Shown one piece after another: positions 24,450 through 54,501 of a stretch of 64,000 nt of DNA. The number at the start of each line of letters is the position of its first letter. Position 1 is the first letter of the stretch. Source of the DNA: Candidatus Rokuibacteriota bacterium (GTDB lineage: Bacteria > Methylomirabilota > Methylomirabilia > Rokubacteriales > CSP1-6); the NCBI GenBank assembly GCA_003220265.1, contig QHRW01000110.1, positions 30,395 through 94,394 of the forward strand. The letters are read 5' to 3'. The translations under genes and the position numbers were made by a program. The notes below the pieces were generated by a model that worked only from the letters and a program-made list of their open reading frames with translations, had not been told where the DNA came from and made no database searches.

Positions 24450-25719
24450 CGGCGCTCGCCAGCGCGCGCGGCGGCACGTAGTCGCCGAAGACGCCGAGCA
24501 GCGCGTCGAGCGCGCCCGGCCGGCGCGCGAGCGCGCGGCACGTCCAGTTCGCCAGCCGGCGGTGGGCGATCACCGTTTGCAGCGCGCGCGTCACCCGCTG
24601 CTTGCCGGCGAAGGCGGCGCGGCGCGCCCGCTCGTAGGCGGCCAGCGCCGCCGCCGACACGTCGCCCGCGCGCAGCGCGCGTACGACGGTCTCCGCCGCC
24701 AGCTCGGCCGACCGCAGCGCGGTGAACACCCCCTCGCCCGTGAACGGATCGTAGAAGCCGGCCGCGTCGCCCACCAGCAGCACGCCGCCGGCCCGCGGCG
24801 GCGTCACGCGGTGGGCCAGCGGGCCCAGCGCGCGCACCGGCGCCACGCGCTCGGCGCCCGCCAGGCGGCGCGCGAGGTGCGGAAGCTGGCGCACGCGCGC
24901 GGTCATGAAATCCTCGAGCCGCCGGCTCCACGGCGCCGCGTGGGCGAGCGGCACCACCACCGAGAGGTTCACGCGCTCGGGGCCGAGCGGGTTCAGGATC
25001 GCGTAGTCCGGCGGGTCCACGAAGATCTCGCCGAGCTCGCGGCACTCGGGCACGCCGCGCACGTACGTGGCCAGCGCCAGGCGCTGGAGCGCGTGCGGGC
25101 TGCGGCAGCCCAGTCGCTGCGCCACGATCGAGTGGCGGCCATCGGCGCCGACCACGACCGGCGCGCGGACCTCCAGCGGGCGCTGCTCGCGGTCCTCGGC
25201 GCGCACGCCCACCACCTGGCCGCCCTCGACGAGGACGTCCGTCACGCGCGTCTCCTCGCGCAGGTCCAGCGGCAGGCTGCGCACGCGATCCACCAGCGCG
25301 CCGTCGAGCGTCTCGCGCGCCACGCCCATCGCGTGCTGGCGGTACGGACGGAACTCGCCGAACGGCCGGTAGCGGCCGACCACGCTGGTGCCGTCGGGCG
25401 CGGTGATACGCATGCCGGCCAGCGCCGCCGCCCCGGCCGCGTCCAGCGCCTTGAGCACGCCGAGCCGGTCGAGCACGCGCGCGGCCTCGGGGCTCAGGTA
25501 CTCGCCGCAGATCTTTTCGCGCGGCAGCGCGGCGCGGTCGAGGACGACCACGTCGAGCCCGTGCTCTGCGAGCAGGATCGCGATCGCAGCGCCGGCGGGC
25601 CCGGCGCCGACGACGACCACGTCCGCATGACGGGGGGCCCCGACATGGCCCCCCGGACCCCCCAATGCTCGGAGCGCCCCGGGGAACCCGTGGCGCTCCT
25701 CGGTCACCCGGCCGCTCAT
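24418..25719 (-). CDS. FAD-dependent oxidoreductase (geranylgeranyl-reductase/flavin monooxygenase-like)
   Basis: The motifs DVVVVGAGPAG, GADGRHS and GDAAGF are present. The N-terminal 30 aa overlap a palindromic repeat element, so the true start may be the downstream GTG at the VVVVG motif. Confidence 0.8.
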   Translation of the reverse strand: MSGRVTEERHGFPGALRALGGPGGHVGAPRHADVVVVGAGPAGAAIAILLAEHGLDVVVLDRAALPREKICGEYLSPEAARVLDRLGVLKALDAAGAAALAGMRITAPDGTSVVGRYRPFGEFRPYRQHAMGVARETLDGALVDRVRSLPLDLREETRVTDVLVEGGQVVGVRAEDREQRPLEVRAPVVVGADGRHSIVAQRLGCRSPHALQRLALATYVRGVPECRELGEIFVDPPDYAILNPLGPERVNLSVVVPLAHAAPWSRRLEDFMTARVRQLPHLARRLAGAERVAPVRALGPLAHRVTPPRAGGVLLVGDAAGFYDPFTGEGVFTALRSAELAAETVVRALRAGDVSAAALAAYERARRAAFAGKQRVTRALQTVIAHRRLANWTCRALARRPGALDALLGVFGDYVPPRALASAVSGAGFRTPR

Positions 25720-30079: not shown

Positions 30080-30172
30080 CCCTCTACCTCATGGGTGACC
30101 CACGAGCAGCAAGCGCTCGCACGGGCGACGAGAAGGGTCCAGACGGGCCCTTATCGCCGCCCGTCGCCGAGC

Positions 30173-30970
30173 TCAGTACATCACGCATCCACCATCCACC
30201 ATCAGCGCCTGGCCGGTGATGTACCGCGCTTCATCCGACGCGAGGAACACGGCGGCGTTGCCGATGTCCGCCGGCTCCTGCTCGCACTTCATGGGCACGA
30301 TGTCATTCACCCGCTTGTCGAACACCTGGCGCGGCGTCATGCCCTTGAAGGCGGGGTTGGTTTCGGCGATGTGCGCGGCCAGCTTCTGCCAGAAGTCCGT
30401 GTAGAGCACGCCGGGGCAGATCGCGTTCACGGTGATCTTGTGCGCGGCCAGCTCTTTGGCCACCACGCGGGTGAACGTGATGACGCCCTGCTTGGCCACG
30501 CTGTAGGCCGGCATGGTGGGCGCGCTCAGCGGCCCCGCGATGGAGGCGATGTTGATGATGCGGCCGGCCTTGCGCTCGATGAAGTAGGGCGCCACGGTTT
30601 TGCACGTCAGGAACACGGACTTGGTGTTCACGGCGAAGGCGCGATCCCAGTCTTCTTCCGTATTGTTCGTGAACGGCATGCCGGGCGGCGCCGCCATGCC
30701 GGCGTTGTTCACGAGGATGTCGATCTTGCCCAGCGCGTCGCGCGTGCGATCCACCATGACCTTGACGTCGGCGGAGCTGGTGACGTCGGTCTTCATCGCG
30801 AGGACCTTGCGCCCGAGCCCCTTCACCTCGTCGGCGACCTTCTCCGCGTTCAGCACCTGGATGTCGGGGATCGCGATGTCGGCGCCCTCGCGCGCGAGCG
30901 CCAGCACGATGCCGCGCCCGATGCCGCTGCCTCCGCCCGTGACGACGGCAACCTTGCCGGCAAGCCGCAT
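30173..30970 (-). CDS. SDR-family oxidoreductase
   Basis: The Rossmann motif TGGGSGIG, the NNAG motif and the YxxxK catalytic motif are present. GGAG ribosome-binding site. Confidence 0.85.
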   Translation of the reverse strand: MRLAGKVAVVTGGGSGIGRGIVLALAREGADIAIPDIQVLNAEKVADEVKGLGRKVLAMKTDVTSSADVKVMVDRTRDALGKIDILVNNAGMAAPPGMPFTNNTEEDWDRAFAVNTKSVFLTCKTVAPYFIERKAGRIINIASIAGPLSAPTMPAYSVAKQGVITFTRVVAKELAAHKITVNAICPGVLYTDFWQKLAAHIAETNPAFKGMTPRQVFDKRVNDIVPMKCEQEPADIGNAAVFLASDEARYITGQALMVDGGCVMY

Positions 30971-31013
30971 GGGATCTCCTTCCTCTATAATCGGATGCTT
31001 CCGGAGGGTCCCC

Positions 31014-33155
31014 ATGACATCACACCCGCTCAGGAGCCGCAACTGGTTCGGCCGTCAGGACCTCGACGGCTTCGTGCATCGCTCGTGGCTGAAGAGCGAG
31101 GGCTTCAGCGATCACGTCTTCGACGGCCGCCCCGTGATCGGCATCGCCAACTCGTGGTCCGAGCTCACGAACTGCAACGCGCACCTGCGCCAGGTGGCCG
31201 ACGCCGTCAAGCGCGGCGTGTGGTCGGCCGGCGGCTTTCCGCTGGAGTTCCCGACGATCTCGCTCGGCGAAGTCCTGATGAAGCCGACGACCATGATGTT
31301 CCGCAACCTGATGGCGATGGACGTCGAGGAGTGCATCCGCGCCTATCCGCTCGACGCCGTCGTGCTCCTCTCCGGCTGCGACAAGACCACGCCGGCCATG
31401 CTGATGGGGTCGGTGTGGCTGGCGCCGAAGCTGGCGCAGGCATCACGCGGTGACGCGGCGTGGCCGCTGCCGAGCGTCAAGCAACTACAGCAGAAAGAGT
31501 AGTCCGCCCTCGGGGTCGTGACGGCGCGCGAGCCTGATGTTAAACTGCCGCGGGTGGCCCGGACGCCCGGAAGAGGTCGCGGTAATGACGAAGTCGCTCA
31601 CGGGCGTTCGTATCCTGGTCGTCGAGGATGACGATGACAGTCGCTACTTTCTAGAGCATTCCCTGGCCGACGAGGGCGCCACGGTCATCGTGGCCGCCAC
31701 GGCCAAGGACGCCTTGCGCGACGTCACCGGTGCGGAAGTCGTCGTGACGGATCTCGCCATGCCGAACAACGACGGGATCTGGCTTCTGAACGAGATCAAC
31801 GGCCTGTCGCGGCCGGTGCCGGTCATCGTCCTGAGCGGCTATCATGAAAGCCAGCACTCGCAGCTTCGCGCGGCTCCCTTCATCCGCAAACTGCTGAAGC
31901 CGGTCAGCACTCGCGAACTAAGTCGGATCATCCGCGAGGTGCTCCACGGCGTGGTGACGGTGTCGGAGCACGGACGACTCCTTCTGGGATTGCTCAATCC
32001 TTTGGATGGCGGACTCTGCACCAAGTGCGTCGCCGACGCGCTGGAGTGCAGTCCTGAGGAGTCGTTGAAAGCGACGAAGAACCTGATCTCGAACGGTCTC
32101 GCGCTCGCCAAGCAAGACCTCTGCGCGCGGTGCGGGGAGGTGCAGCCGGTCACGCGCCTCCGTCCCTCACGGTAGGTTCCGACCGGCGACCTGGGGGGTG
32201 TGCCTGACGTCTGACTTCGACTAGAGGCGTTCGACAACGCGATCCGCGCGCTGATGGCGATCGGCGGGTCCACAAACGCGGTCATCCACCTCGTGGCCAT
32301 CGCCCGCGAGCCGGTCTTCCACTGGCGCTGTCGCGCTTCGACGAGCTGTCGCGCACGACACCCTTCCTGCTCAACGTGCGCCCGTCCGGCAAGTACCTGA
32401 TGGAGGACTTCTTCTACGCGGGCGGGCTGCCGGTCGTCCTCAAGGCGCTGCTGCCACTGCTGCTGGCCGACAACGTGCGCGACGCGAGCTGCTGGAACGA
32501 CGACGTCATCCGCCCGCTCGAGGTCCCGCTGGCCGCGGAAGGCGGCCTGGCCATCCTGCACGGCAATCTCTGTCTGGGCGGCGCCGTCATCAAGGTGTCG
32601 GCGGCGTCCGGTCATCTGCTCATGCACCGTGGTCGCGCCGTCGTGTTCGAGGACCACGCGGACCTGCACCGCCGCATCGACGATCCCGACCTGCCGATCG
32701 ACGCCTCCTCCGTGCTGGTGCTCAAGCACGTCGGGCCCAAGGGCGCGCCGGGCATGCCGGAGTGGGGCGCCGCGCCGGTGCCGGCCCGCCTGCTGAAGCA
32801 GGGTGTGAAAGACATGGTACGGATCTCCGATGCACGCATGAGCGGAACGTCATACGGCACCGTGGTGCTGCACGTGGCGCCGGAGTCGGCGGTGGGCGGG
32901 CCGCTGGCGCTGGTGCGCGACGGGGACGAGATCGAGCTGAACGTGCCTGCACGAACGCTGACGTTGAATGTGCCGGAGGGCGAGCTCGCGCGCCGGCGGG
33001 CCGCGTGGACGCCGCGCCCGCCGCACTTCACACGCGGCTACGGCAGCCTCTTCCTCGACCACGTGCTGCAGGCCGATGAGGGCTGCGACTTCGACTTCCT
33101 CCGCGGCCGTACCCCCGTTCGCCACGAGGACACTGCCGGCCCGTCGCATAGTTGA
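31014..33155 (+). pseudogene. IlvD/EDD-family dehydratase (sugar-acid dehydratase type) disrupted by an inserted cassette and a frameshift
   Basis: The N-terminal fragment (31014-31410) matches IlvD/EDD up to GCDKTTPAMLMG. The C-terminal homology resumes near 32213 ([31 protein letters not shown]) and needs a +1 frame change near 32300 to continue ([14 protein letters not shown]...[11 protein letters not shown]...GCDFDFL). About 135 aa of the middle are missing and are replaced by roughly 800 bp of lower-GC DNA. Confidence 0.7.
31585..32175 (+). CDS. single-domain response regulator with C-terminal Cys-rich (CxxC...CxxC zinc-ribbon-like) domain
   Basis: Receiver-domain motifs are present (VVEDDDD acidic pocket, phospho-acceptor Asp in VVVTDLAMP, conserved Lys in IRKLLKP). 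The C-terminal 70 aa carry CTKC and CARC pairs. GC content is visibly lower than the flanks. The gene sits inside the disrupted dehydratase gene. Confidence 0.7.
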   Translation: MTKSLTGVRILVVEDDDDSRYFLEHSLADEGATVIVAATAKDALRDVTGAEVVVTDLAMPNNDGIWLLNEINGLSRPVPVIVLSGYHESQHSQLRAAPFIRKLLKPVSTRELSRIIREVLHGVVTVSEHGRLLLGLLNPLDGGLCTKCVADALECSPEESLKATKNLISNGLALAKQDLCARCGEVQPVTRLRPSR

Positions 33156-33158
33156 AAT

Positions 33159-33179
33159 GGGGGCCCCGAAATGGCCCCC
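33159..33179. repeat. GGGGGCC-loop-GGCCCCC palindromic element, copy A (terminator-like hairpin after the dehydratase fragment)
   Basis: gggggccccgaaatggccccc: a 7-bp GC stem with a 7-nt loop. Related copies occur at 25633, 36038 and 54482. Confidence 0.6.
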
Positions 33180-33242
33180 AAACCCCCAACGCGCGTCGCG
33201 CGGCCGGCCAAGCCGTGGCGCTCCTCGATCACTCGAGGGCGA

Positions 33243-33824
33243 TCAGGGCGACTGGACGCTGTCGCGGAGGACGGGGACGCGCCGAGTGGGGACGCGACGA
33301 GCGACGTAGCGGGTCGAGACGGGCACCGCGACGTGAGTCAGCGTCGAAGAGCGGGACCAGTTGACGGAGGCCGTCTCGGCCACGACGAGCGGACGCGTTA
33401 CCTCGGGCGGAGTGGGCCGCGGATGAACGACACGCGGCGCCGCGTCCGGCGAGGCCGGCGGAGCCTCCGCGATGCTGGCGGACTCCTCGGCGGCCGGTGG
33501 TAAGACCGCGACGGCCGCCGGGACCGGGGGAAGCTCGTGCGTCGGCCGGGCGATGAGTACCAGGGCGACCATGGTGGCCAGCGAGGCGACCGCGAGCCCG
33601 GGCACCCACGCCGCCCCGCGACGGTCGGCGGACGCCCCGCGGTCGAACCGGGCCCGCAGGTGATCGGCCCGCACCCGCGCTGCACACTTGCTGCAGATTC
33701 CGTCCGTGACGCTGACATTCAGACCCTGCCAGCTGCCGATCCCGAGGATCTTGGTGTAGCCGTGATACCGGCGATGCCATGCACAACGTGAAATAAGCAC
33801 GATCCTCGATAGAGCAAACCCCAT
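33243..33824 (-). CDS. hypothetical membrane-anchored protein with N-terminal Cys/His cluster and Pro-rich periplasmic tail
   Basis: The ATG start lies 27 nt after the murQ stop. The features are C..H...H and CSKC residues, one TM helix (AAWVPGLAVASLATMVALVLIA) and a Pro/Ala-rich C-terminus. This anti-sigma-factor-like topology is not confirmed. Confidence 0.45.
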   Translation of the reverse strand: MGFALSRIVLISRCAWHRRYHGYTKILGIGSWQGLNVSVTDGICSKCAARVRADHLRARFDRGASADRRGAAWVPGLAVASLATMVALVLIARPTHELPPVPAAVAVLPPAAEESASIAEAPPASPDAAPRVVHPRPTPPEVTRPLVVAETASVNWSRSSTLTHVAVPVSTRYVARRVPTRRVPVLRDSVQSP

Positions 33825-33851: not shown

Positions 33852-34760
33852 TCAGCGGGCGGACGGCCGTTCTAGGACCGAGCGCAGGGACCCGTCGGCC
33901 GCCCGCAAGGCGCGGGCAGCGGCATCGGCTGGCAGGTTCCTGCGCGCCATCACGATCGCCACGCGCACGTTGCCGCGCGCGCCACGCAGCACTCGGCGCG
34001 CGCGTGCGCTCCCGACGCCCGCGATCTCGGCCACCAGCCGCTCGGCGCGCGCGCGCAGCTTCGCCGAGCGCGGTTGCAGATCTACCATCCGGTTGCCGTA
34101 AACCTTTCCCAGGCGCGTCATGCTCGCCGTCGTCAGCGTGTTGAGCACCAGCTTGGTGGCGGTGCCGGCCTTGAGACGGGTGGAGCCGGCGAGGACTTCG
34201 GGACCGGGCGCGGGCGCGATCAGCAAGGCGCGGCCCTCGGCACGAGCGGCGTTGCACGCCACCAGGATCGTGGCGGCCCCCCGGACGGAGGCCGCCGCCA
34301 GCGCCGCGCGCACGAACGGCGTCACGCCGCTGGCCGAGACGCCCACCACGACGTCACCGCGGCGGACACGCGCGCGCACCGCGCGGCGGGCCGCGCGCGC
34401 GTCGTCCTCCGCGCCCTCGCGCGAGCGGAAGACGGACGCGCGGCCGCCCGCCATGATGGCCTGCACGAGGGTGCGCGGCGTGCCGAAGGTCGGCGGGCAC
34501 TCGGCGGCTTCCAGCACGCCGAGGCGGCCGCTGGTGCCGGCGCCGACGAAGAAGAGGCGCCCGCCGTTGGCGAGCGAGGCGACGATGCGCTCGACGCCGG
34601 CCGCGATGGCCGGGGCCACGCGCCCCACCGCAGCCACCGCGCGGCGATCCTCGCGGTTCATCAGCGTGGCGATCGCGCGTGGGCCGAGGCGATCGAGGCT
34701 GCGGCTGCGGGGATTGACACGCTCGGTGGCGAGGCGCTCGTAGCGCACGCGCGACGGCAT
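33852..34760 (-). CDS. murQ: N-acetylmuramic acid 6-phosphate etherase
   Basis: SIS domain with MurQ-like blocks (GGRLFFVGAGTSGRLG, STRLKAGTATKLVLN). Confidence 0.85.
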   Translation of the reverse strand: MPSRVRYERLATERVNPRSRSLDRLGPRAIATLMNREDRRAVAAVGRVAPAIAAGVERIVASLANGGRLFFVGAGTSGRLGVLEAAECPPTFGTPRTLVQAIMAGGRASVFRSREGAEDDARAARRAVRARVRRGDVVVGVSASGVTPFVRAALAAASVRGAATILVACNAARAEGRALLIAPAPGPEVLAGSTRLKAGTATKLVLNTLTTASMTRLGKVYGNRMVDLQPRSAKLRARAERLVAEIAGVGSARARRVLRGARGNVRVAIVMARRNLPADAAARALRAADGSLRSVLERPSAR

Positions 34761-34802
34761 CGCGCGCATGGTAACACCCCGCTTGCGTTACACTCGGCGC
34801 CA

Positions 34803-35984
34803 GTGTCGAGCGTCCCGCGCGTCCAGTCCGGCCTCGACGTCCTCCTCCATCACCGCCTCGGACTCCTGCGCGGCCGCCGCTTCGGCATCCTTGCTCATCA
34901 GGCGTCCGTCGATGCGCGGCTCGAGCACGCCGTCGCGCTCCTGTCGGCCGTGCGCGGCGCCCGGCTCGCGGCGCTCTTCGCGCCCGAGCACGGCGTGTGG
35001 GGCGCGCCCCAGGACCTGATCTTCGTCGGCAACGAGCGCGATCCCGTCACCAGGCTGCGCGTGACGAGCCTCTACGGCGAGCGGCGCGAGCCGACGGCGG
35101 CGATGCTGCGCGGCCTCGACGTGCTGGTGATCGACCTGCAGGATGTCGGCGCGCGCTACTACACCTACCAGTGGACGATGGCGCTGGCGATGCGCGCGTG
35201 CGCGCGCGCCGGCGTGCGCGTGCTCGTGCTCGATCGCCCCAATCCGCTCGGCGGCGAGCTCGTCGAGGGCAACGTCCCCGATCCGGCCTTCGCCTCGTTC
35301 GTGGGGCTCTACCCGCTGCCCGCGCGCCCCGGGCTGACGATCGGCGAGGCCGCCCGCTACGTGAACGTGCGCCACGGTCTCGGCGCGGACCTCGACGTGG
35401 TGACCATGCGCGGCTGGCGCCGCCGCATGCTCTGGGAGGACACGGGGCTCGGCTGGGTGCCACCGTCGCCGAACATGCCGACCCCGGACACCGCGCGCGT
35501 CTATCCGGGAGGCTGCTTGATCGAGGGGACGAATCTTTCCGAGGGACGCGGCACCACGCGGCCGTTCGAGTGGGTGGGCGCACCGTGGCTCGACGCCCAC
35601 GCGTACGCGGCGGCGCTGGAGGCGGAGGGCCTGCCCGGCGTCGCCTTCCGTCCCGCGCGCTTCCGGCCCACGTTCCAGAAGCACGCCGGGCGTCTCTGCG
35701 GCGGCGTACAGATCCACGTGACCGACCGCGCGCGCTTCAAGCCGTTTCTCGCCGGCCTCGCCGTGATCGCCGTCGCGCGCCGCCAGGCACCGCGCGCGTT
35801 CCGCTGGCGTCGGCCGCCTTACGAGTTCGAACGGCGAAAGCTGCCCATCGACATCCTGCTCGGGACCGACACCATCCGCCGTGCGCTCACACGGGGCGCC
35901 ACGCTACGCGCGATCGAGCGAAGCTGGCAGCGCGACCTCGCCGCCTGGAAGCGCCGCCGACGTCCGTTTCTGGAATACCAATGA
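34803..35984 (+). CDS. namZ: DUF1343-family protein (exo-beta-N-acetylmuramidase NamZ-like)
   Basis: DUF1343 blocks are present (ALFAPEHG, LDVLVIDLQDVGARYYTYQWTM). GTG start, divergent from murQ. Confidence 0.8.
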   Translation: MSSVPRVQSGLDVLLHHRLGLLRGRRFGILAHQASVDARLEHAVALLSAVRGARLAALFAPEHGVWGAPQDLIFVGNERDPVTRLRVTSLYGERREPTAAMLRGLDVLVIDLQDVGARYYTYQWTMALAMRACARAGVRVLVLDRPNPLGGELVEGNVPDPAFASFVGLYPLPARPGLTIGEAARYVNVRHGLGADLDVVTMRGWRRRMLWEDTGLGWVPPSPNMPTPDTARVYPGGCLIEGTNLSEGRGTTRPFEWVGAPWLDAHAYAAALEAEGLPGVAFRPARFRPTFQKHAGRLCGGVQIHVTDRARFKPFLAGLAVIAVARRQAPRAFRWRRPPYEFERRKLPIDILLGTDTIRRALTRGATLRAIERSWQRDLAAWKRRRRPFLEYQ

Positions 35985-36037
35985 TCGGCCGAGGAGCGCC
36001 CCGGCTCCGGCGGGGCGCGACGAGCGACTGGGGGCGA

Positions 36038-36057
36038 GGGGGCCCTTCGAGGCCCCC
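36038..36057. repeat. GGGGGCC-loop-GGCCCCC palindromic element, copy C (between convergent genes; likely bidirectional terminator)
   Basis: gggggcccttcgaggccccc, followed by the AT-rich ttaattaaac that contains the stop of the minus-strand gene. Confidence 0.55.
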
Positions 36058-36060
36058 TAC

Positions 36061-36396
36061 TTAATTAAACAATCTGGTGAAGAAGTTCTTCACGCTGGCG
36101 CCGAAGGAGTTCGCGGTCTCCTTCAGGTTCTGCCACGTGCTCTTGGCCTCCGGCTCGGCGGCCTTGCCCGACTCCTTGAGCTTCTCGCCGGTGTACTTGC
36201 CGCCCTCGACGACGGTCTTGCCGATGCCCTTGGCCGTCTCTTCGATGCCGTCGCCGACCTTGCCCTGACCGATCTTCTTGGCGCCGGACTCGACCTGCCC
36301 GGTCGCCGACTTGACCTTGGAATCGTCGGCCGCGCCGGCCGGCGCCGTCGGCGCCAGCAACGCCACGAGGCTGAGTGCGAGGACGATGCGCTTCAT
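36061..36396 (-). CDS. small secreted Lys/Gly/Glu-rich hypothetical protein
   Basis: Signal peptide MKRIVLALSLVALLAPTAPAGA. The remainder is low-complexity. Confidence 0.5.
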   Translation of the reverse strand: MKRIVLALSLVALLAPTAPAGAADDSKVKSATGQVESGAKKIGQGKVGDGIEETAKGIGKTVVEGGKYTGEKLKESGKAAEPEAKSTWQNLKETANSFGASVKNFFTRLFN

Positions 36397-36454
36397 GGGT
36401 GACCTCCCGGCCCGCCGCGGGCCTGTCTTCAATGCTACCGCGTGCTGCCGAAGA

Positions 36455-36664
36455 TCACGACATCCGGTCGGAGGGCGGACGCAGACGAGCCAGCGGGTGG
36501 GACGGCGGCAGGTCGTGACTGGGGAGGCCGGTGGAGCGAGTCGAGGATTCCCACCACCACACGTCGCCGGCGACGGTATCGCGCGGCACCTCGCGATTGC
36601 CGTGCACGGTGCCGACCACGATCCAGAGCGCGGTCAGGATGAGCACGGCGACGAAGATCCACAT
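36455..36664 (-). CDS. small hypothetical membrane protein
   Basis: An ATG start followed by one predicted TM helix (MWIFVAVLILTALWIVVGTV) and a WWW motif. Weak call. Confidence 0.3.
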   Translation of the reverse strand: MWIFVAVLILTALWIVVGTVHGNREVPRDTVAGDVWWWESSTRSTGLPSHDLPPSHPLARLRPPSDRMS

Positions 36665-36701
36665 CGCGTCGTTCCTGCCTGTCGTGACTCGCGCGCGACG
36701 G

Positions 36702-37103
36702 TTACTTGGTCGTGCGCGTGGCGGCCGTGGTGACGGCGCCGCTCGAGCTGCGCTCCTGCTGCTGCTGGTAGCGGCTGACCACCTGGCCGAGGTTCTTTTC
36801 GGCCAGCAGGCCCTGGGACTTCATCGTCTGGAAGACCTTGCCCCAGCTCTGACCGTTCTGCTTCATGGCCGCGATCTGATCGATCGTGAGCGCCTTGGGC
36901 GCGGCGGCCGTCGTGGCGCCGCCGGTCTTCGTCATCGGCATCGCGGTGGTCAGCTGTGCCTCGAACAGCGCGCGGGCGACCTTGGCGTTGCCGGGCGACA
37001 GCTTCGCGTAGGCGCCGTCGACCGTGGCCTGGGCGCCGGCCGGCGACGCGGACACCGCGCCGAAGAGCAGCAGGAGACCTGCGAGTGCGGATGCGTTGCC
37101 CAT
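36702..37103 (-). CDS. secreted hypothetical protein
   Basis: Signal peptide MGNASALAGLLLLFGAVSASPAGAQA. Start taken at the internal Met of the track ORF. Confidence 0.5.
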   Translation of the reverse strand: MGNASALAGLLLLFGAVSASPAGAQATVDGAYAKLSPGNAKVARALFEAQLTTAMPMTKTGGATTAAAPKALTIDQIAAMKQNGQSWGKVFQTMKSQGLLAEKNLGQVVSRYQQQQERSSSGAVTTAATRTTK

Positions 37104-37117
37104 GGTCGCGATTCCCC

Positions 37118-37567
37118 CTATTTGGCGCGGCGCGACATCGCGGGCATGCCGTCGAGCGTGCGCTCGGTCTGGACGATGATCTCGCCCGCCGTCGCCCGAT
37201 CCCGCCATGCCCAGGCGTGCTTCGCGGTGATCCGCATGCGCGTCGTGCGCTCGGTGATCTGTTCGAGTTCCACGTAAACCATCCGGTCGCCGGCGGCGGC
37301 CACCATCGCCCGGCAGCCGTCTTCCTTGATCTTGTCGCTCTTGAGCGTGATCTCCATGCGCTTGAAGGTCGTCAGCGTGGCGCGGCGCAGGTGCTCGACG
37401 GGTGCGCTGAACGTGCGATACGCGATGCCGTCGAGCGTGAAGTTCACGCTCTGGGCGGGCGCCTTGCCCGTGCCGTTGACGGTCAAAGGAAAGCCCATCG
37501 CGGCGCAGCCCTGGCCGGCCAGCGCTGCCGCCACGATCAACGCGATGCCTCGAATGCGACGCACCAT
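37118..37567 (-). CDS. hypothetical lipoprotein
   Basis: Lipobox LAGQGC after a short positively charged N-terminus. Confidence 0.55.
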   Translation of the reverse strand: MVRRIRGIALIVAAALAGQGCAAMGFPLTVNGTGKAPAQSVNFTLDGIAYRTFSAPVEHLRRATLTTFKRMEITLKSDKIKEDGCRAMVAAAGDRMVYVELEQITERTTRMRITAKHAWAWRDRATAGEIIVQTERTLDGMPAMSRRAK

Positions 37568-37787
37568 GTCATGGCTCCCCGGGGGGTCCCATACGCAGTG
37601 GTCATGCCATACCCGGGCGAATTACCCGAAAGCCTGCTACGGAAGGTAGTTACGGGCTTGTTCAGAGGGGGAGGGAGCCGCTCGAGTCAGCACGGCGCGC
37701 CCTTCTAGCACGCCAATCTGTCACCCATGGCCGGATTCCGTCCTGGGTCCGCGACGCTGCGGGGGTGGTGCCGCTAGAATCGAGCGC

Positions 37788-39302
37788 GTGACCATCGAGG
37801 ACCTCGTCGGCGAACGGCTCATGATCGGCCTCAGCGGCGCCACGCTCTCCGATGCCGACGTGCGCGTGTTCCAGGACACCCGCGCGGCCGGCCTCATCCT
37901 CTATCGGCGCAACTACGAGGGGCCGGCTGCGCTGGCCACGCTCCTCGACGCGCTGGAGTCCGCGCTCGGTCGGCGGCTGCTCGTCGCCACCGATCACGAG
38001 GGCGGGCGCATCGTCATGCTCGGCGCGGGCACGACGATCTTTCCGGACAACCTCGCAATGGGGACCGCGGGCGAGGAGGCCTTCGCGTTTCGCCAGGGAC
38101 AGTTCGAGGCGCGCGAGCTGCGGCGGCTCGGGATCGATCTCAACCTGGGGCCGTGCCTGGACGTGCTGACCGAGCGCTACAGCCCCAACATCGGCATCCG
38201 CTCGTACGGCAAGGACCCGCGCATCGTGTCGCGTTACGGCGTGGCGCGCATCCGCGGCATGGCGCGCGGCGGCCTCTCGGCGTGCGCCAAGCATTTCCCC
38301 GGCAAGGGGCACTCGCCGCTCGACGCGCATCTCAAGCTGCCCACGATCGACTCCACGCCGGAGGAGATGCGCGCCACGCACCTGCCGCCGTTCCTCGAGG
38401 CGATGGCCGCCGGCGTGGCCGCCGTCATGACCTCGCACCCGGTCTATCCCAAGCTCGACCCGAGCGGCGTGCCGGCCACGTTCTCGCGGCGGCTGGTGGG
38501 GGACTGGCTGCGCGGCGAGCTGAATTTCGCCGGCGTCATCGCGTCCGACGACCTCGAGATGGGCGCGGTGAGCGAGACGTGTCCCATCGGCGAGGCCGCC
38601 GTCCGCACGGCCGCCGCCGGCCACGACCTGCTCCTGGTCTGCCACACCGCGCCCGCGCAGCGCGCCGCGGCCGTGGCGCTCGTGGAGGCGTATCGCAGCG
38701 GGCGACTTCCGCTGGCCGAGGGCGAGGCCGCGGCCGAGCGGGTGCGCCGCCTGCGGCTGCTGCGCGCGGCGCGCCGCGAAGGCGGCCCGCCCGCCCCCGA
38801 GCCCGACGCCCGGCCGCTCGCGCAGGCCATCGCCACGCGCGCCGTCACCGAGGTCGGCCACGGCGCCGTCGATTTACGCCGCGCGCTCAACGGCCGCGTG
38901 GCCGTCGTCTTCCCGCGGTTCTCCGACCTGGCGCCGCGGATCACCATCGAGCCGGAGATCGCCGACGAGCGCGGCTGGGTCGCGGGCGCCTTCGGCAGCG
39001 CCGGCATCACGCCGGAGACGCTGGTGGTGGGCATCGAGCCGACCGCGGACGAGATTGCCGCGGCCGCCAAGCGCGCGGCGGCGGCGGACGCCACCGTGCT
39101 GTTCCTCTTCGACGCGCACCTCTACGCGTCGAACCGCGCGCTGCTGGAGGCCGTGCAGGCGCAGGCGCGCCGGCTGGCCGTGGTGCTGCTGCGCGACCCC
39201 TACGACGCCGCGCTGCTGGCGCCCGGCGTGCGCGGGCTCACGGCTTACGGGTTTCGGAAGTGCCAGCTCGACGCAGTCGTGGCGAGGCTGACGCACCCCT
39301 GA
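37788..39302 (+). CDS. nagZ: beta-N-acetylhexosaminidase (GH3, NagZ-like)
   Basis: GH3 N-terminal domain with the KHFPG/GKGHSPLDAH region and DDLEMGA. 504 aa. Confidence 0.9.
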   Translation: MTIEDLVGERLMIGLSGATLSDADVRVFQDTRAAGLILYRRNYEGPAALATLLDALESALGRRLLVATDHEGGRIVMLGAGTTIFPDNLAMGTAGEEAFAFRQGQFEARELRRLGIDLNLGPCLDVLTERYSPNIGIRSYGKDPRIVSRYGVARIRGMARGGLSACAKHFPGKGHSPLDAHLKLPTIDSTPEEMRATHLPPFLEAMAAGVAAVMTSHPVYPKLDPSGVPATFSRRLVGDWLRGELNFAGVIASDDLEMGAVSETCPIGEAAVRTAAAGHDLLLVCHTAPAQRAAAVALVEAYRSGRLPLAEGEAAAERVRRLRLLRAARREGGPPAPEPDARPLAQAIATRAVTEVGHGAVDLRRALNGRVAVVFPRFSDLAPRITIEPEIADERGWVAGAFGSAGITPETLVVGIEPTADEIAAAAKRAAAADATVLFLFDAHLYASNRALLEAVQAQARRLAVVLLRDPYDAALLAPGVRGLTAYGFRKCQLDAVVARLTHP

Positions 39303-40770
39303 GCCGGCTGGCGGCGAGGGCGATCGCGATCGTCCCCACCGTGCCCACGATCACCAGCCACGACCACGCGAAGGGCAGCACACCGGTCTCCGACAGCACC
39401 AGCAGCACGAGATTCACGAGGGCCATGGCGATCATGGCCAGCACGTTGGCGCTGTCGGCCACCGGGCGGCGTGTGAGCAGGCCGAGCAGGAACACGCCGA
39501 GCAGCGAGCCGAACGTCACGCCCGCAATCTTGAAGGCCAGCCACAGGATCTTGTCGAAGAACGAGAACGCGTAGGCGATCACGCCCAGCAGGACGCCGAA
39601 GGCCACCACGCTGATCCGCGAGATCAGCAGATAGTGCCGCTCGGAGCGGTTGCGCGCCAGCAGCGGCCGGTAGATGTCGGTGACGAACGACGCGGCCAGC
39701 GAGCCGAGCGGCGAGTCGATCGAGGCCAGCACGATGGCGCTCAGCATGAGACCGCGCAGCACCGCGGGCATCATCTGCTGCACGTAGTGCGGCAGGATCT
39801 CGTCGGGCCGTGATACCGGCAGCTCGGGATGCTGCGTGTAGAAGGTGAAGAGCGCGGCGCCGAGGCCCAGGTAGATGGCCAGCGTCAGCAGCGTGCCGAT
39901 CGGCGTCAGGGCCAGTGTCCGCTGACTTTCCTGGCGTGTCTCCACCGTCAGCAACCGCTGCATGAGGTCGTGGTCGGTCCCGAAGGCGGCCATGGACCCG
40001 ACGAGGCCGTTGAGCACCGCCACCCACACGATGTTCGGCTCGGTGAGCACGCGCCGCCAGAAGTCCGGCTCGCTCGGCGACGGACCCCAGTTGATGACGT
40101 TGAGCCGGCCCGCCTCGCCCGCCAGCTGGACGATGGCGGCAGCGCCGCCCTCGATGTGCGACAGGAGGTAGGCCAGCGTGATGCCGCCAGCCAGCAGGAA
40201 CGTCAGCGCCTGGAACACGTTGGTCCACACCACCGCCTTCACGCCGCCGGTGACGATGTAGAGGATCGACACCACGCTGAACACGACCAGCGTCGGCACC
40301 AGCGGCCAGCCCATCAGGATCGCCACGGCCAGCGCAGCCGCCATGAGCCGTACCCCCGAGCCGGCCAGACGGGTGATGAAGAAGAAGATCGACGCCGTGA
40401 CCTGCGTGGCGCGGCCGAAGCGATGCGCCAGGAACTCGTAGATGGTCGTGACGTCGTGACGGTAGAAGGCCGGGATGAACAGGAAGGCCACCGCGAACTT
40501 GGCCAGGCTGGAGCCGACGAAGAACTGCGCGTACTCCCAGTTCTCGCTGTAGGCGGTGGCCGGCACCGAGATGATCGTGACCGCGCTGATCTCGGTGGCC
40601 AGGAAGCTGAGGCAGGCCGCCCACCAGGGCACGCGGCGGCGCGCCAGGAAGAAGTCGACGGTGTCGTGCTGCTCGCGGCTGAGGGCGAAGCCGATGGCCA
40701 GGAGGACCCCGAGGGCGACGGCAAGGACGGCATAATCGGGCCAGGTGAGCGACGAGGACGTGACGGGCAC
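39238..40770 (-). CDS. sodium:solute symporter family transporter
   Basis: About 13 TM helices with SSF-family similarity. Convergent with nagZ and overlaps it by 65 nt. Confidence 0.85.
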   Translation of the reverse strand: MPVTSSSLTWPDYAVLAVALGVLLAIGFALSREQHDTVDFFLARRRVPWWAACLSFLATEISAVTIISVPATAYSENWEYAQFFVGSSLAKFAVAFLFIPAFYRHDVTTIYEFLAHRFGRATQVTASIFFFITRLAGSGVRLMAAALAVAILMGWPLVPTLVVFSVVSILYIVTGGVKAVVWTNVFQALTFLLAGGITLAYLLSHIEGGAAAIVQLAGEAGRLNVINWGPSPSEPDFWRRVLTEPNIVWVAVLNGLVGSMAAFGTDHDLMQRLLTVETRQESQRTLALTPIGTLLTLAIYLGLGAALFTFYTQHPELPVSRPDEILPHYVQQMMPAVLRGLMLSAIVLASIDSPLGSLAASFVTDIYRPLLARNRSERHYLLISRISVVAFGVLLGVIAYAFSFFDKILWLAFKIAGVTFGSLLGVFLLGLLTRRPVADSANVLAMIAMALVNLVLLVLSETGVLPFAWSWLVIVGTVGTIAIALAASRLRGASASPRLRRAGTSETRKP

Positions 40771-40801
40771 GCCCCATCTTATTACAGGGCGCGTCCTGGA
40801 C

Positions 40802-41428
40802 TCAGTAACGCGGCGTGCGGATGAGGGCGGCGCCCTCCGAGGTCTGCTTGCGCAGGCGCTCCACCAGCGCGGCGTACGACTCGCGCTGCAGGATGCGCGA
40901 GAACTCGCTGCGGTAGGTGGAGACGAAGCTCACGTTGTCGATCAGGATGTCGTAGACCTTCCAGCGGCCGTCCTTGAGCTGCAGGCGATAGTCGAGCGGC
41001 GTCTCCGTGTTGCGCCGGGTGATGACCTTGGAGCGCACCGTGGCGAAGGGCCCATCGACGATCTCGCCCAGGTAGACGATCTTCTCCCCGGAGTAGGCCT
41101 CGATGCGGCCGATATAGCTGCGCTCGAGCAGGTCCGTGAACAGGCGGGTGAACTCGGCCTGCTCTTCCGGCGTCCGGCTCGTCCACTGCCGCGAGAGCGC
41201 GCGGCGGGAGATCTCGTCGAAGTCGAAGAGGTCGGTCGCCACGCGGCGGATCTCGATCCGGCGCTGTTCGGCGACGAGGCGCCGGTTGGGCTCGGGCGTG
41301 TCGACGTCGGCCTTCTGGAGGGCGAGGATCACGCGGGACACGGCGGACTGGACGACGTCGCGCGGGCCCACCGCCGATCCGCTCACGGCACCCGCCACCA
41401 GCAGCCAGGCCACGAGAGCCTTTCCCAT
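40802..41428 (-). CDS. MlaC/Ttg2D-family periplasmic binding protein
   Basis: Signal peptide MGKALVAWLLVAGAVSGSAVG. MlaC-like blocks are present (WKVYDILIDNVSFVSTYRSEF). Lies 31 nt upstream of the SSS transporter on the same strand. Confidence 0.75.
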   Translation of the reverse strand: MGKALVAWLLVAGAVSGSAVGPRDVVQSAVSRVILALQKADVDTPEPNRRLVAEQRRIEIRRVATDLFDFDEISRRALSRQWTSRTPEEQAEFTRLFTDLLERSYIGRIEAYSGEKIVYLGEIVDGPFATVRSKVITRRNTETPLDYRLQLKDGRWKVYDILIDNVSFVSTYRSEFSRILQRESYAALVERLRKQTSEGAALIRTPRY

Positions 41429-41552
41429 GTGCACGCTCTCCCGGATGACAAGGAGAAGCATGCCCTGTGCCACCCCCGGCTCTCTTCTAAGGCGGCGATT
41501 TCCCACCTCGGCCGCTGGCCCTTGCGCCCGCATAATGACAACACTGTCAGCC

Positions 41553-42374
41553 ATGTCTCACACCGGACAGCGGCCTGCGCCGCTCGCCGTCGGGATCGAC
41601 CTCGGCGGCACCTGGCTCCGCCTCGTGGCCCTGCGCGACGGGCACGTGGTCCGCGGTGCGCACCGGGCGATTCCACTGTCGAAACTCTCCAAGTTTTTAC
41701 CCACCCGTTCAGGGGGGGGCCGGATCGCCTCGCTGGTGGTGGCCTCGCGCGGCGTGTGGACGCCCGCCGAGCGCCGCGCCGCGCGGCGGCGGCTGCGCGG
41801 CGCGGCCGCGCGCGTGGAGGTGATCTCCGACGCGGAGGCGGCGCTGCTGGGCGCGCTCGATGCGCAGCCCGGCGTGCTCGTGCTGGCCGGCACCGGCTCG
41901 ATCGTGCTCGGACGCGACGCGGGCGGACGGCTCGCGCGCGCCGGTGGGCTCGGTCCGCTGCTCGGCGACGAGGGCTCGGCGTTCTGGCTCGGCCGCGAAT
42001 GGCTGCGCGTGACGGCCACGACCGCGCGGGCACGCGCGCTGGCGCGGCATCCCGACGCCGTCGCGCGCGTCGCCGCGCTCGCGCCGCGCGTGCTCGCGCG
42101 CGCGCGGCGCGGCGATCGTCGCGCGCGCGCCATCGTCGCGGCCGGACAGGCCGAGCTCGCCGCGCTCGCCGTCGACGTCATCCGGCGCCTGGGCCTGCGC
42201 GCGCCGGTGCGCGTCTCGTGGAGCGGCGGCCTGCTGGGCCACGCGTGGTATCGCGCCGGCGTGCAGCGCGCGCTCGCGCGTCGCATCGCCTGCCGGTGGA
42301 CGGCGCCCGCCGCCGACGCGGCGCTGGCGGCGGCGCGGCTGGCCGCGCGACGCGCGCCGCGGGGAGGCCGCTGA
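41553..42374 (+). CDS. BadF/BadG/BcrA/BcrD-type ATPase (N-acetylglucosamine/N-acetylmuramate kinase-like)
   Basis: ASKHA-fold motifs LAVGIDLGGT and VLAGTGSIVLG are present. The cell-wall-recycling context suggests a MurK/NagK-type kinase. Confidence 0.75.
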   Translation: MSHTGQRPAPLAVGIDLGGTWLRLVALRDGHVVRGAHRAIPLSKLSKFLPTRSGGGRIASLVVASRGVWTPAERRAARRRLRGAAARVEVISDAEAALLGALDAQPGVLVLAGTGSIVLGRDAGGRLARAGGLGPLLGDEGSAFWLGREWLRVTATTARARALARHPDAVARVAALAPRVLARARRGDRRARAIVAAGQAELAALAVDVIRRLGLRAPVRVSWSGGLLGHAWYRAGVQRALARRIACRWTAPAADAALAAARLAARRAPRGGR

Positions 42375-45669: not shown

Positions 45670-45697
45670 CGCACTGTGAAATCGATTACCCAGTGCG
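45670..45697. promoter_or_regulatory. inverted repeat cgcactg-N14-cagtgcg in an AT-richer divergent intergenic region
   Basis: Read from the sequence. It lies in the roughly 500-bp gap between the divergent Ldh_2 and lipoprotein/giant-protein genes. Candidate operator. Confidence 0.25.
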
Positions 45698-45737
45698 GCA
45701 CACGAGCCTGGCGTGGTCCTAGGCCAAAGCAGATGCC

Positions 45738-46145
45738 GTGGATTCCCGAATGTCGCGAGCCGTGATGGTCGCCGTCCTCGCCGCTGGCGCATGCGGCCCA
45801 TCCTTCCCTTCGCCGGGGCGCACTGCCAGTCAGCCGTTGCCGCCCCGCGGCGCGCAGCCCGGCCCTGGCCCGGCGCGCGGCGTCTTTCCGCCGAACGCCA
45901 CCCGTGTGATTGCGACCGTGCAGAAGGTCAGCGGCGACACGCTCACGCTCGAGATCCTCGAGGCCCGCCAGGCACGCCCCGACGTGGCCATCGGCCCGGC
46001 GGTGGGCACCATCGAAGCCGTGTCGCGCGGCCTGCTCGACCCTGCGCTGGCCGGCCGGCGCATCGAGGCCGTCATTTCGATCGTCGGCGACACGCTGGCG
46101 AGCCGGTGGCTGATTTCCGAGATACGGCCCCTCCCCGACCGATGA
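45738..46145 (+). CDS. small hypothetical lipoprotein translationally coupled to the giant protein gene
   Basis: Lipobox AVLAAGAC. The stop overlaps the ATG of the downstream gene (ATGA). Confidence 0.55.
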   Translation: MDSRMSRAVMVAVLAAGACGPSFPSPGRTASQPLPPRGAQPGPGPARGVFPPNATRVIATVQKVSGDTLTLEILEARQARPDVAIGPAVGTIEAVSRGLLDPALAGRRIEAVISIVGDTLASRWLISEIRPLPDR

Positions 46146-54434: not shown

Positions 54435-54481
54435 CGAGGAGTGCCGCGGCTTCGCCGCGGCGCTCCGAACGTTGGGGGTGT

Positions 54482-54501
54482 GGGGGCCATTTCGGGCCCC
54501 C
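54482..54501. repeat. GGGGGCC-loop-GGCCCCC palindromic element, copy D (in the 5' leader of the DUF3303-like gene)
   Basis: gggggccatttcgggccccc. This is the reverse-complement orientation of copy A. It sits 17 nt upstream of the ATG, immediately before AGGAGG. Confidence 0.55.

Follow-up and report, generated by a model that had tools for sequence, protein, structure and literature searches.

In a soil bacterium of the Rokubacteria (“Candidatus Rokuibacteriota,” phylum Methylomirabilota), a gene for a dehydratase of the IlvD/EDD family was found to have lost its middle to DNA that carries a response-regulator gene. The stretch analyzed, referred to here as the window, comprises 64,000 nucleotides (nt) (positions 30,395 to 94,394 of the forward strand of contig QHRW01000110.1, assembly GCA_003220265.1), and all coordinates below count from its first letter. 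The altered gene is very probably a recent pseudogene in a soil Rokubacteria population, its middle having been replaced by the regulator-bearing DNA in a homology-independent manner. It represents pseudogenization of an ordinary kind and a real, recent gene-killing rearrangement, in which 375 bp of the dehydratase gave way to 817 bp. The parts of the locus are as follows.

31014–31408, plus strand: N-terminal remnant of the IlvD/EDD-family dehydratase, codons 1 to 132, ending GCDKTTPAMLMG
31409–32225, plus strand: replacement segment of 817 bp, in place of 375 bp (codons 133 to 257)
31409–31584, plus strand: left noncoding part of the segment, about 176 bp, resembling the related regulator locus L005 only at 31552–31584
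31585–32175, plus strand: intact orphan response-regulator gene of 196 amino acids (stop codon 32173–32175), assigned by PF00072 and a family alignment
32176–32225, plus strand: right end of the segment, 50 bp, after the regulator stop codon
32226–33155, plus strand: C-terminal dehydratase remnant, codons 258 to 577, with two further lesions
32300–32310 (near 32306), plus strand: frameshift through a 1-nt deletion, within ...ATCGCCCG-CGAGCCGG...
32456–32467 (between 32461 and 32462), plus strand: in-frame deletion of 33 bp, removing codons 337 to 347

The state of the locus before the event was established from relatives with an uninterrupted gene. When the two remnants were joined and used as a query, 117 of the best 120 listed homologues were exactly 577 amino acids long, with identities to the query of 78 to 86% over the stretch covered by the best local alignment, and some were labeled “Candidatus Rokubacteria” or Methylomirabilota by their sources. 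A reading of the DNA made from its sequence only, without database searches (hereafter the sequence-only reading), had proposed looking for intact dehydratase loci in related genomes, and two such loci were found: contigs L016 and L014 carried an uninterrupted dehydratase gene with the same neighbors as the window. In both, genes for an enoyl-CoA hydratase, an acyl-CoA dehydrogenase, and a short-chain dehydrogenase/reductase (SDR; minus strand) were followed by the dehydratase and then by a gene of unknown function encoding 179 to 190 amino acids; next came a SIS-domain (MurQ-like) gene in L016, whereas that position in L014 was taken by a gene cut by the contig end. The ancestral locus was thereby shown to be acyl-CoA dehydrogenase and SDR, with the divergently oriented dehydratase, the small unknown gene, and the SIS-domain (MurQ-like) gene following.

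Profile scores placed the ancestral enzyme within its family. The intact syntenic orthologues scored 898 to 904 bits against NF004784 (PRK06131 subfamily; cutoff, 539) but stayed below the cutoff of 882 of the L-arabinonate dehydratase equivalog NF009559 (865.7 bits for P0042 and 863.9 bits for P0041) and below that of 618 for canonical IlvD (459 to 465 bits). They also matched the solved IlvD/EDD relatives 8EJ0 and 5J83 at E values of 1e-224 and 1e-212, respectively, the L-arabinonate dehydratase of Rhizobium leguminosarum (5J83/5J84/9EVV) being among the solved relatives. These comparisons show the predicted ancestral product to be a 577-amino-acid IlvD/EDD dehydratase of the PRK06131 subfamily, nearest to L-arabinonate dehydratase and not canonical IlvD, and the gene is accordingly read as one for a putative accessory dehydratase of the sugar-acid type rather than for an enzyme of branched-chain amino acid metabolism.

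Comparison with L016 and L014, by blastn and without gaps, placed the breakpoints at 31408|31409 and 32225|32226. The N-terminal remnant was 92% identical in DNA to L016 (1595–2835) up to window position 31408, where the uninterrupted allele would read ...CTGATGGG and then CGCCGC...; similarity to L016 (3211–4161) resumed at 32226, at 84% identity. Between these points 375 bp (125 codons, residues 133 to 257) are gone and the 817 bp of 31409–32225 are in place. The sequence-only reading had described a gene split by a regulator cassette, with about 135 residues exchanged for roughly 800 bp; the interruption by regulator DNA and the replacement are both real, the event being an exchange of one stretch for another and not a simple split. 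Its C-terminal half was said to begin at LEAFDNAIR, of which AFDNAIR (32227) is indeed the start of the C-terminal homology and the preceding LE is coincidental.

Profile searches of the six-frame translation, by which the same reading had suggested mapping the breakpoints, agreed with these limits and bore out its recognition of both parts of the dehydratase. The N-terminal remnant (132 amino acids) matched PF00920 positions 1 to 101 (E, 8e-32) and NF004784 positions 7 to 138; after frame correction, the C-terminal remnant matched PF00920 positions 220 to 303, NF004784 positions 260 to 567 of 576, and PF24877 from 1 to 191 of its 191 positions (210 bits). PF00920 (316 positions) was thus present only as 1–101 and 220–303, and its positions 102 to 219, like residues 133 to 257, occurred in none of the reading frames of the window. 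A continuous IlvD/EDD alignment across the insert, which the sequence-only reading had named as evidence against a disruption, was seen in no frame, and the 64-kb window held neither a second dehydratase nor a second copy of the regulator.

The dehydratase is dead and constitutes one pseudogene, because residues 133 to 257, including Cys195, have been lost and unrelated DNA lies in their place. The lost middle encodes the motif GHCMVMGTAST with Cys195, while Cys54 and Cys122 are kept in the N-terminal remnant. We take these three cysteines to be the putative equivalents of the Fe-S cluster ligands Cys59, Cys127, and Cys200 of 5J84, at a constant offset of 5. Cys195 would, on homology to that structure, be the third [2Fe-2S] ligand, and the set of three cluster cysteines is incomplete in the window copy since Cys195 falls within the deleted residues. 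No single open reading frame (ORF) of about 577 amino acids was present: the frame of the N-terminal remnant runs into the insert and stops at 31500–31502, giving 162 amino acids that include a 30-residue unrelated tail, a separate gene stands midway, and the 1-nt deletion near 32306 breaks the frame of the C-terminal remnant, in which an ORF of 259 amino acids is open. That deletion, anticipated by the sequence-only reading as a frame change near 32300, appeared in a three-way alignment with L016 and L014 as GCCCG-CGAGCC in the window versus GCGCGCCGCGCC in L016. The 33-bp stretch missing farther downstream is flanked in the intact sequence by GCT(GCT)/GCT. Compared with working IlvD/EDD dehydratases (NF004784/PRK06131), the window copy therefore lacks residues 133 to 257 and 337 to 347 and is frameshifted; the 1-nt and 33-bp deletions have followed the replacement as further lesions of the gene. 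The earlier claim that a metabolic gene had been inactivated holds on all these counts.

The same arrangement with the same frameshift recurred in five other metagenome contigs at 99.75 to 100% identity: L001 was 100% identical to the window over all 5,219 bases, L002 and L003 were 99.8 to 99.9% identical, L013 (the same as L099) was 99.76% identical, and L098 was 99.75% identical. The contigs, reached through exact matches to the C-terminal ORF product and through the regulator, came from different samples and assemblies (scaffold-type, k141-type, and JGI records), with SAMN08902887, SAMN08902884, and JGI 3300009012 behind L001, L002, and L013, respectively, and they differ by 0.14 to 0.25% scattered single-nucleotide polymorphisms (SNPs), so that they represent separate reconstructions. 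The junctions, the 1-nt deletion, and the 33-bp deletion were common to all of them wherever covered, and the 1-nt deletion was seen in every independent contig spanning the site (L001, L002, L003, L013, and L098). No intact allele above 86% identity was among the homologues returned by the search with the joined remnants, and the disrupted form is, as far as sampled, fixed in this population. A 35-bp deletion at first suspected in the L002 regulator was dismissed, the run of N at that place being a scaffold gap.

Decay could be followed between strains. Relative to the window, L013 had four 1-nt insertions or deletions (indels), none in a long homopolymer; three lay inside the dehydratase remnants (31088, 32412, and 33007) and one in the spacer upstream of the dehydratase, while the four flanking genes and the regulator had none. 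By our own coordinate arithmetic, with about 28% of the stretch estimated to be remnant or intergenic, the chance of all four falling in that part is about 0.006, a distribution suggestive of relaxed constraint confined to the remnants. The ratio of nonsynonymous to synonymous substitution rates (dN/dS) of the remnants versus L016 was 0.012 for the N-terminal part and 0.13 for the C-terminal part, no higher than for L016 versus L014, and 1 of 280 near-invariant residues was changed (P385L), compared with a mean of 0.9 and a maximum of 4 in intact orthologues. The replacement appears to be young, because the remnant dN/dS equals that of intact orthologues and only this one near-invariant residue has changed; recency of the event would in turn account for the low dN/dS of sequences that no longer encode an enzyme.

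Two readings under which no gene was killed have to be weighed against this evidence. One holds that the arrangement is functional, either as a split dehydratase whose halves assemble or as a dehydratase of which a receiver domain is a natural part. Both remnants do contain ORFs with a low dN/dS versus orthologues, but residues 133 to 257, with the third cluster cysteine by homology, are encoded nowhere in the window, the regulator constitutes a distinct gene, having start and stop codons of its own and a reading frame other than that of the remnant behind it, the C-terminal remnant needs a frameshift to be read, and the sister strain represented by L013 has three more frameshifts in the remnants. 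A naturally occurring receiver insert, which the sequence-only reading had singled out as an innocent explanation, was present in 0 of the 117 closest listed orthologues of exactly 577 amino acids, and such a functional arrangement can be given next to no credence. The other reading takes the structure for an assembly chimera and the frameshift for a sequencing error. The window does come from a metagenome-type assembly, L001 is identical to it throughout, and some related contigs have a chimeric appearance (L098 at its 5' end, and the mosaics L017 and L100, described below); against this, identical junctions together with the 1-nt and 33-bp deletions recur in contigs of several samples and assemblies that are SNPs apart, which makes an artifact very improbable.

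The replacement segment bore no sign of a mobile element. Neither terminal inverted nor terminal direct repeats were found at its ends, and these noncoding ends matched neither the deleted dehydratase segment, nor the rest of the window, nor the other fetched loci, except at 31552–31584. Homology of the insert to the regulator loci L005 to L012 begins at 31552, the stretch 31552–31584 matching the DNA directly upstream of the regulator homologue in L005, and homology among the regulator loci stops at the regulator stop codon; neither integron-like sites nor conserved motifs were found at the ends of these loci. Short similar sequences at the two junctions had been put forward as remnants of a recombination site. 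They were rejected as recombination scars, the similarity being at chance level: the best local alignment of the two regions of ±40 nt scored 9.0, random window pairs scored 8.1 ± 1.6, and 29 to 32% of such pairs scored as well (P of about 0.3), while the right-hand sequence sits 19 nt inside the insert and not at the junction. As the sequence-only reading had stated, transposase and integrase genes were lacking, and so was any recombinase gene, in the set examined, which consisted of the called locus genes plus ten additional ORFs searched against Pfam (a subset of the window's ORFs); the members of this set were metabolic, transport, or unknown, and the insert holds the regulator gene only. 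Neither the insert nor the C-terminal domain of the regulator had a match in plasmid and phage collections, and no Rfam family reached its gathering score in the window. The features of a transposon, insertion sequence, or miniature inverted-repeat transposable element were missing (no end repeats, no target-site duplication, no transposase), and 375 bp had also been removed. As to an integron attC site (an imperfect palindrome with a GTTRRRY core), the 50-bp tail behind the stop codon had no inverted repeat reported and the regulator loci share no downstream motif, no formal attC model having been run.

Homology-independent replacement is favored by exclusion, because there are no repeats, no recombinase among the neighbors screened, and no plasmid or phage match; a simple insertion is disfavored because 375 bp were lost simultaneously. 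With resident DNA replaced by ectopic DNA and no target-site duplication, terminal repeats, or recombinase gene among the screened neighbors, the locus resembles a product of illegitimate recombination. The 375 bp would have been lost and the 817-bp fragment with its regulator gene captured without any transposon, integron, or phage being involved, either through end-joining repair of a break that captured a stray DNA fragment or through double illegitimate recombination of the fragment at microhomologies. The fragment would have originated elsewhere in this genome or in a different Rokubacteria lineage, perhaps one with a lower GC content. Illegitimate recombination takes several forms, homology-facilitated illegitimate recombination and end joining with DNA capture among them. 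A preprint on SPDIR, the short-patch form of double illegitimate recombination at microhomologies, describes its products as microindel mutations (bioRxiv 10.1101/2023.11.22.568220); measured against that description, the patch here is of another size, 817 bp with a whole gene rather than a microindel.

Some points weigh against this reconstruction or limit it. None of the collections searched yielded the donor locus; junction microhomologies, a direction of transfer, and a one-step event are accordingly putative, and the deletion may have preceded or followed the insertion. The additional L013 indels might conceivably be errors in the consensus of its assembly. Simple consensus scans of 30900–33400 found no sigma-70-like promoter and no terminator.

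The gene carried by the segment is complete, as the sequence-only reading had held. Its start codon is the ATG at 31585, fixed by the alignment of homologues and preceded by GAGG at 9 nt; a 212-amino-acid ORF starting at 31537 was discarded, the homologues placing the true start at 31585. The product consists of a receiver domain (approximately residues 9 to 120; PF00072, 53.9 bits versus a cutoff of 30.2) followed by a small Cys-rich winged-helix domain (approximately residues 125 to 196). Asp56 (TDLAMP), Ser84, and Lys105 (K105-P106) were invariant in an alignment of 13 family members, and a (β/α)5 secondary structure was predicted for the receiver, in keeping with a response regulator. The ORF was intact in every copy found, strains differed in it by substitutions only (L11L, E14D, and L57V), and dN/dS within the family was 0.26 to 0.61. 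Neither the called genes at the locus nor the ten additional ORFs screened included a histidine kinase gene, and the regulator is termed an orphan here for that reason. It presumably acts as an orphan DNA-binding regulator, and the gene is probably still expressed, driven either by its own upstream DNA or by transcription reading through from the dehydratase promoter.

In having a receiver with conserved Asp, Ser, and Lys residues and then a small domain of the helix-turn-helix type, the protein resembles the response regulators of the OmpR/PhoB and NarL/FixJ types. It differs from the former in lacking a PF00486 (Trans_reg_C) match in the output domain and from both in that its 70-residue output domain is ArsR/MarR-like with five invariant cysteines (C-x2-C, C, C-x2-C). 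The last 70 residues had no match in Pfam or NCBIfam, and beyond PF00072 only FleQ appeared, at E values of up to 0.1. Modeled separately with AlphaFold, the C-terminal domain had a mean confidence (pLDDT) of 89 and an H-β-H-H-β-β topology; its best PDB matches were winged helices of the ArsR, ZitR/AdcR, MarR, and PerR types (template modeling score of about 0.7). When the full-length model was used for a fold search, the receiver domain determined most of the matches, FixJ, NarL, and PhoP being among them. The invariant cysteines include two C-x2-C pairs, and a structural metal site is a reasonable guess. The domain (window 31948–32172) had only 15 representatives among 1.84 billion cluster representatives, most of its matches being stand-alone proteins of 63 to 160 amino acids, and the predicted output domain is a rare, undescribed Cys-rich winged helix. 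Two larger proteins, P0242 (848 amino acids) and P0249 (1,016 amino acids), each contained eight or nine stretches matching this domain.

The composition of the insert had been noted as visibly different from that of its flanks, and measurement agreed: the regulator has a GC content of 63.3% versus a window mean of 71.1%, within the lowest 0.2% of 591-nt windows, and a GC content at third codon positions (GC3) of 0.81 versus 0.92 to 0.94 in the adjacent genes, a crude set of window genes spanning 0.75 to 0.97. Full-length homologues, 62 to 79% identical in amino acid sequence, were found only in soil metagenome contigs; the closest outside this locus were 72 to 79% identical, the 79% ones being mosaics. 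They lay in at least four gene contexts besides the window locus, and DNA homology between contexts was limited to the ORF and about 33 bp upstream. In the context typified by L005, the regulator stands between a homocysteine S-methyltransferase gene and a gene resembling a dimethylsulfoniopropionate (DMSP) lyase, and the flanking proteins shared at least 90% identity with their counterparts in a “Candidatus Rokubacteria” metagenome-assembled genome (MAG). The regulator of the L005 locus (70% GC) is GC-poor too (63%; GC3, 0.78), while at the L004 locus (66% GC) its GC content equals that of the surroundings. Synonymous divergence (dS) among regulator copies was 0.34 to 0.70 (0.35 to 0.70 for the window regulator versus its homologues), and that of the dehydratase versus its orthologues was similar, at 0.26 to 0.64. 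The closest receiver-only relatives occurred in Rokubacteria and Methylomirabilota MAGs, and among GTDB species representatives only receiver-domain relatives were found, at no more than 48% identity.

From similar signs the sequence-only reading had concluded that the regulator was horizontally acquired, and an origin in an unrelated lineage, perhaps on a mobile element since lost, deserves weighing. It could draw on the low GC content and GC3 of the gene, on the L005 homologue being equally GC-poor relative to its neighbors, and on the occurrence of the family in at least five gene contexts that share little more than the gene itself. A foreign source was nonetheless not borne out. All full-length homologues derive from soil metagenome contigs, the L005-type locus belongs to Rokubacteria, and the closest receiver-only relatives lie in the same phylum; 63% GC is just below the 64 to 71% reported for the phylum (PMC5712423) and equal to the L004 surroundings; and plasmid or phage matches, terminal repeats, and recombinase genes among the called and screened neighbors are all wanting. 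Acquisition from outside is accordingly unlikely: movement inside the phylum or the genome explains the data no less well, and family, relatives, and dS point to a putative Rokubacteria gene relocated within a genome or between related genomes, not from an unrelated source.

A bolder proposal, and a quite improbable one, is that the 196-amino-acid regulator gene moves again and again, as a unit the size of one gene, between or inside Rokubacteria genomes and does so with no recognizable recombinase, repeats, or att site. The at least five unrelated contexts with homology confined to the ORF and about 33 bp, a GC content consistently below that of the hosts, and possible recombinant alleles (L017/L100) would fit it, and if it were true, the hit on the dehydratase would be one landing of an unrecognized kind of mobile regulatory gene. 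Two further observations concern the regulator family. L017 (1–2173) and L100 (1–1212), from two different assemblies and corresponding to window 30140–32173, contain a mosaic regulator gene that is of the window type, with the dehydratase N-terminal remnant upstream, up to approximately 31749–31801 and of the L103 type thereafter, the switch falling within about 52 bp over which the two types hardly differ; these contigs are either genuine recombination products of two regulator loci or an assembly chimera that arose more than once. In addition, a 60-nt element of 83 to 85% identity was found downstream of the regulator gene, at varying distances and in different context types, in L100 (650–709), L105 (1778–1837), L106 (1754–1813), and L107 (3534–3593).

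For the replacement of the dehydratase middle by regulator-bearing DNA, the value of the locus lies in a deletion plus capture without a mobile-element signature, for which natural strains display the intact ancestor, the precise breakpoints, and the beginnings of decay. In metabolic inference for uncultured soil bacteria, the 162- and 259-amino-acid “dehydratase” ORFs should be annotated as one pseudogene and not as two enzymes. For response-regulator classification, the regulator's output domain offers a minor lead, and the current understanding of gene inactivation and of two-component signaling is unchanged.

Other observations were made at and around the pseudogene. A perfect TATAAT occupies 30986–30991, 23 nt before the dehydratase ATG and within the 43-bp spacer between this gene and the divergent SDR gene; it has no −35 match and was therefore not called as a promoter, and L013 has a 1-nt insertion just upstream. 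The first 63 bases of L098 (Ga0066709_100050961) are dehydratase of the intact type and extend 6 nt past the left breakpoint of the window (..AMLMGAA); next comes, on the other strand, a fragment of about 205 bp resembling a class III nucleotidyl cyclase, and from base 269 the contig corresponds to window 31283 onward. Bases 1 to 268 are probably a chimeric contig end, but they could be another rearranged copy. Directly 3' of the stop codon of the pseudogene lies one copy (33159–33235, plus strand) of an intergenic repeat of 70 to 80 nt, present in four copies of 79 to 84% identity, the others being at 25633–25710 (plus strand), 54435–54501 (minus strand), and 35990–36057 (minus strand). The repeat opens with the hairpin GGGGGCC-CCGAAAT-GGCCCCC, closes with ...GCCGTGGCGCTCCTCG, and has no Rfam match.

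Downstream of the pseudogene, the genes at 33852–42371 look like a cluster for recycling of cell wall sugars. The first encodes a SIS-domain protein that we read as MurQ-like, and an ORF within 34074–35984 looks DUF1343/NamZ-like by eye. The called members are as follows.

33852–34769, minus strand: SIS-domain protein
37650–39299: glycoside hydrolase family 3 protein
39241–40929, minus strand: sodium:solute symporter
41118–42371: BadF/BcrAD-type ATPase

Farther on, an ORF of about 2,496 codons at 45680–53167 (plus strand) has a coding-like GC3 of 0.92.

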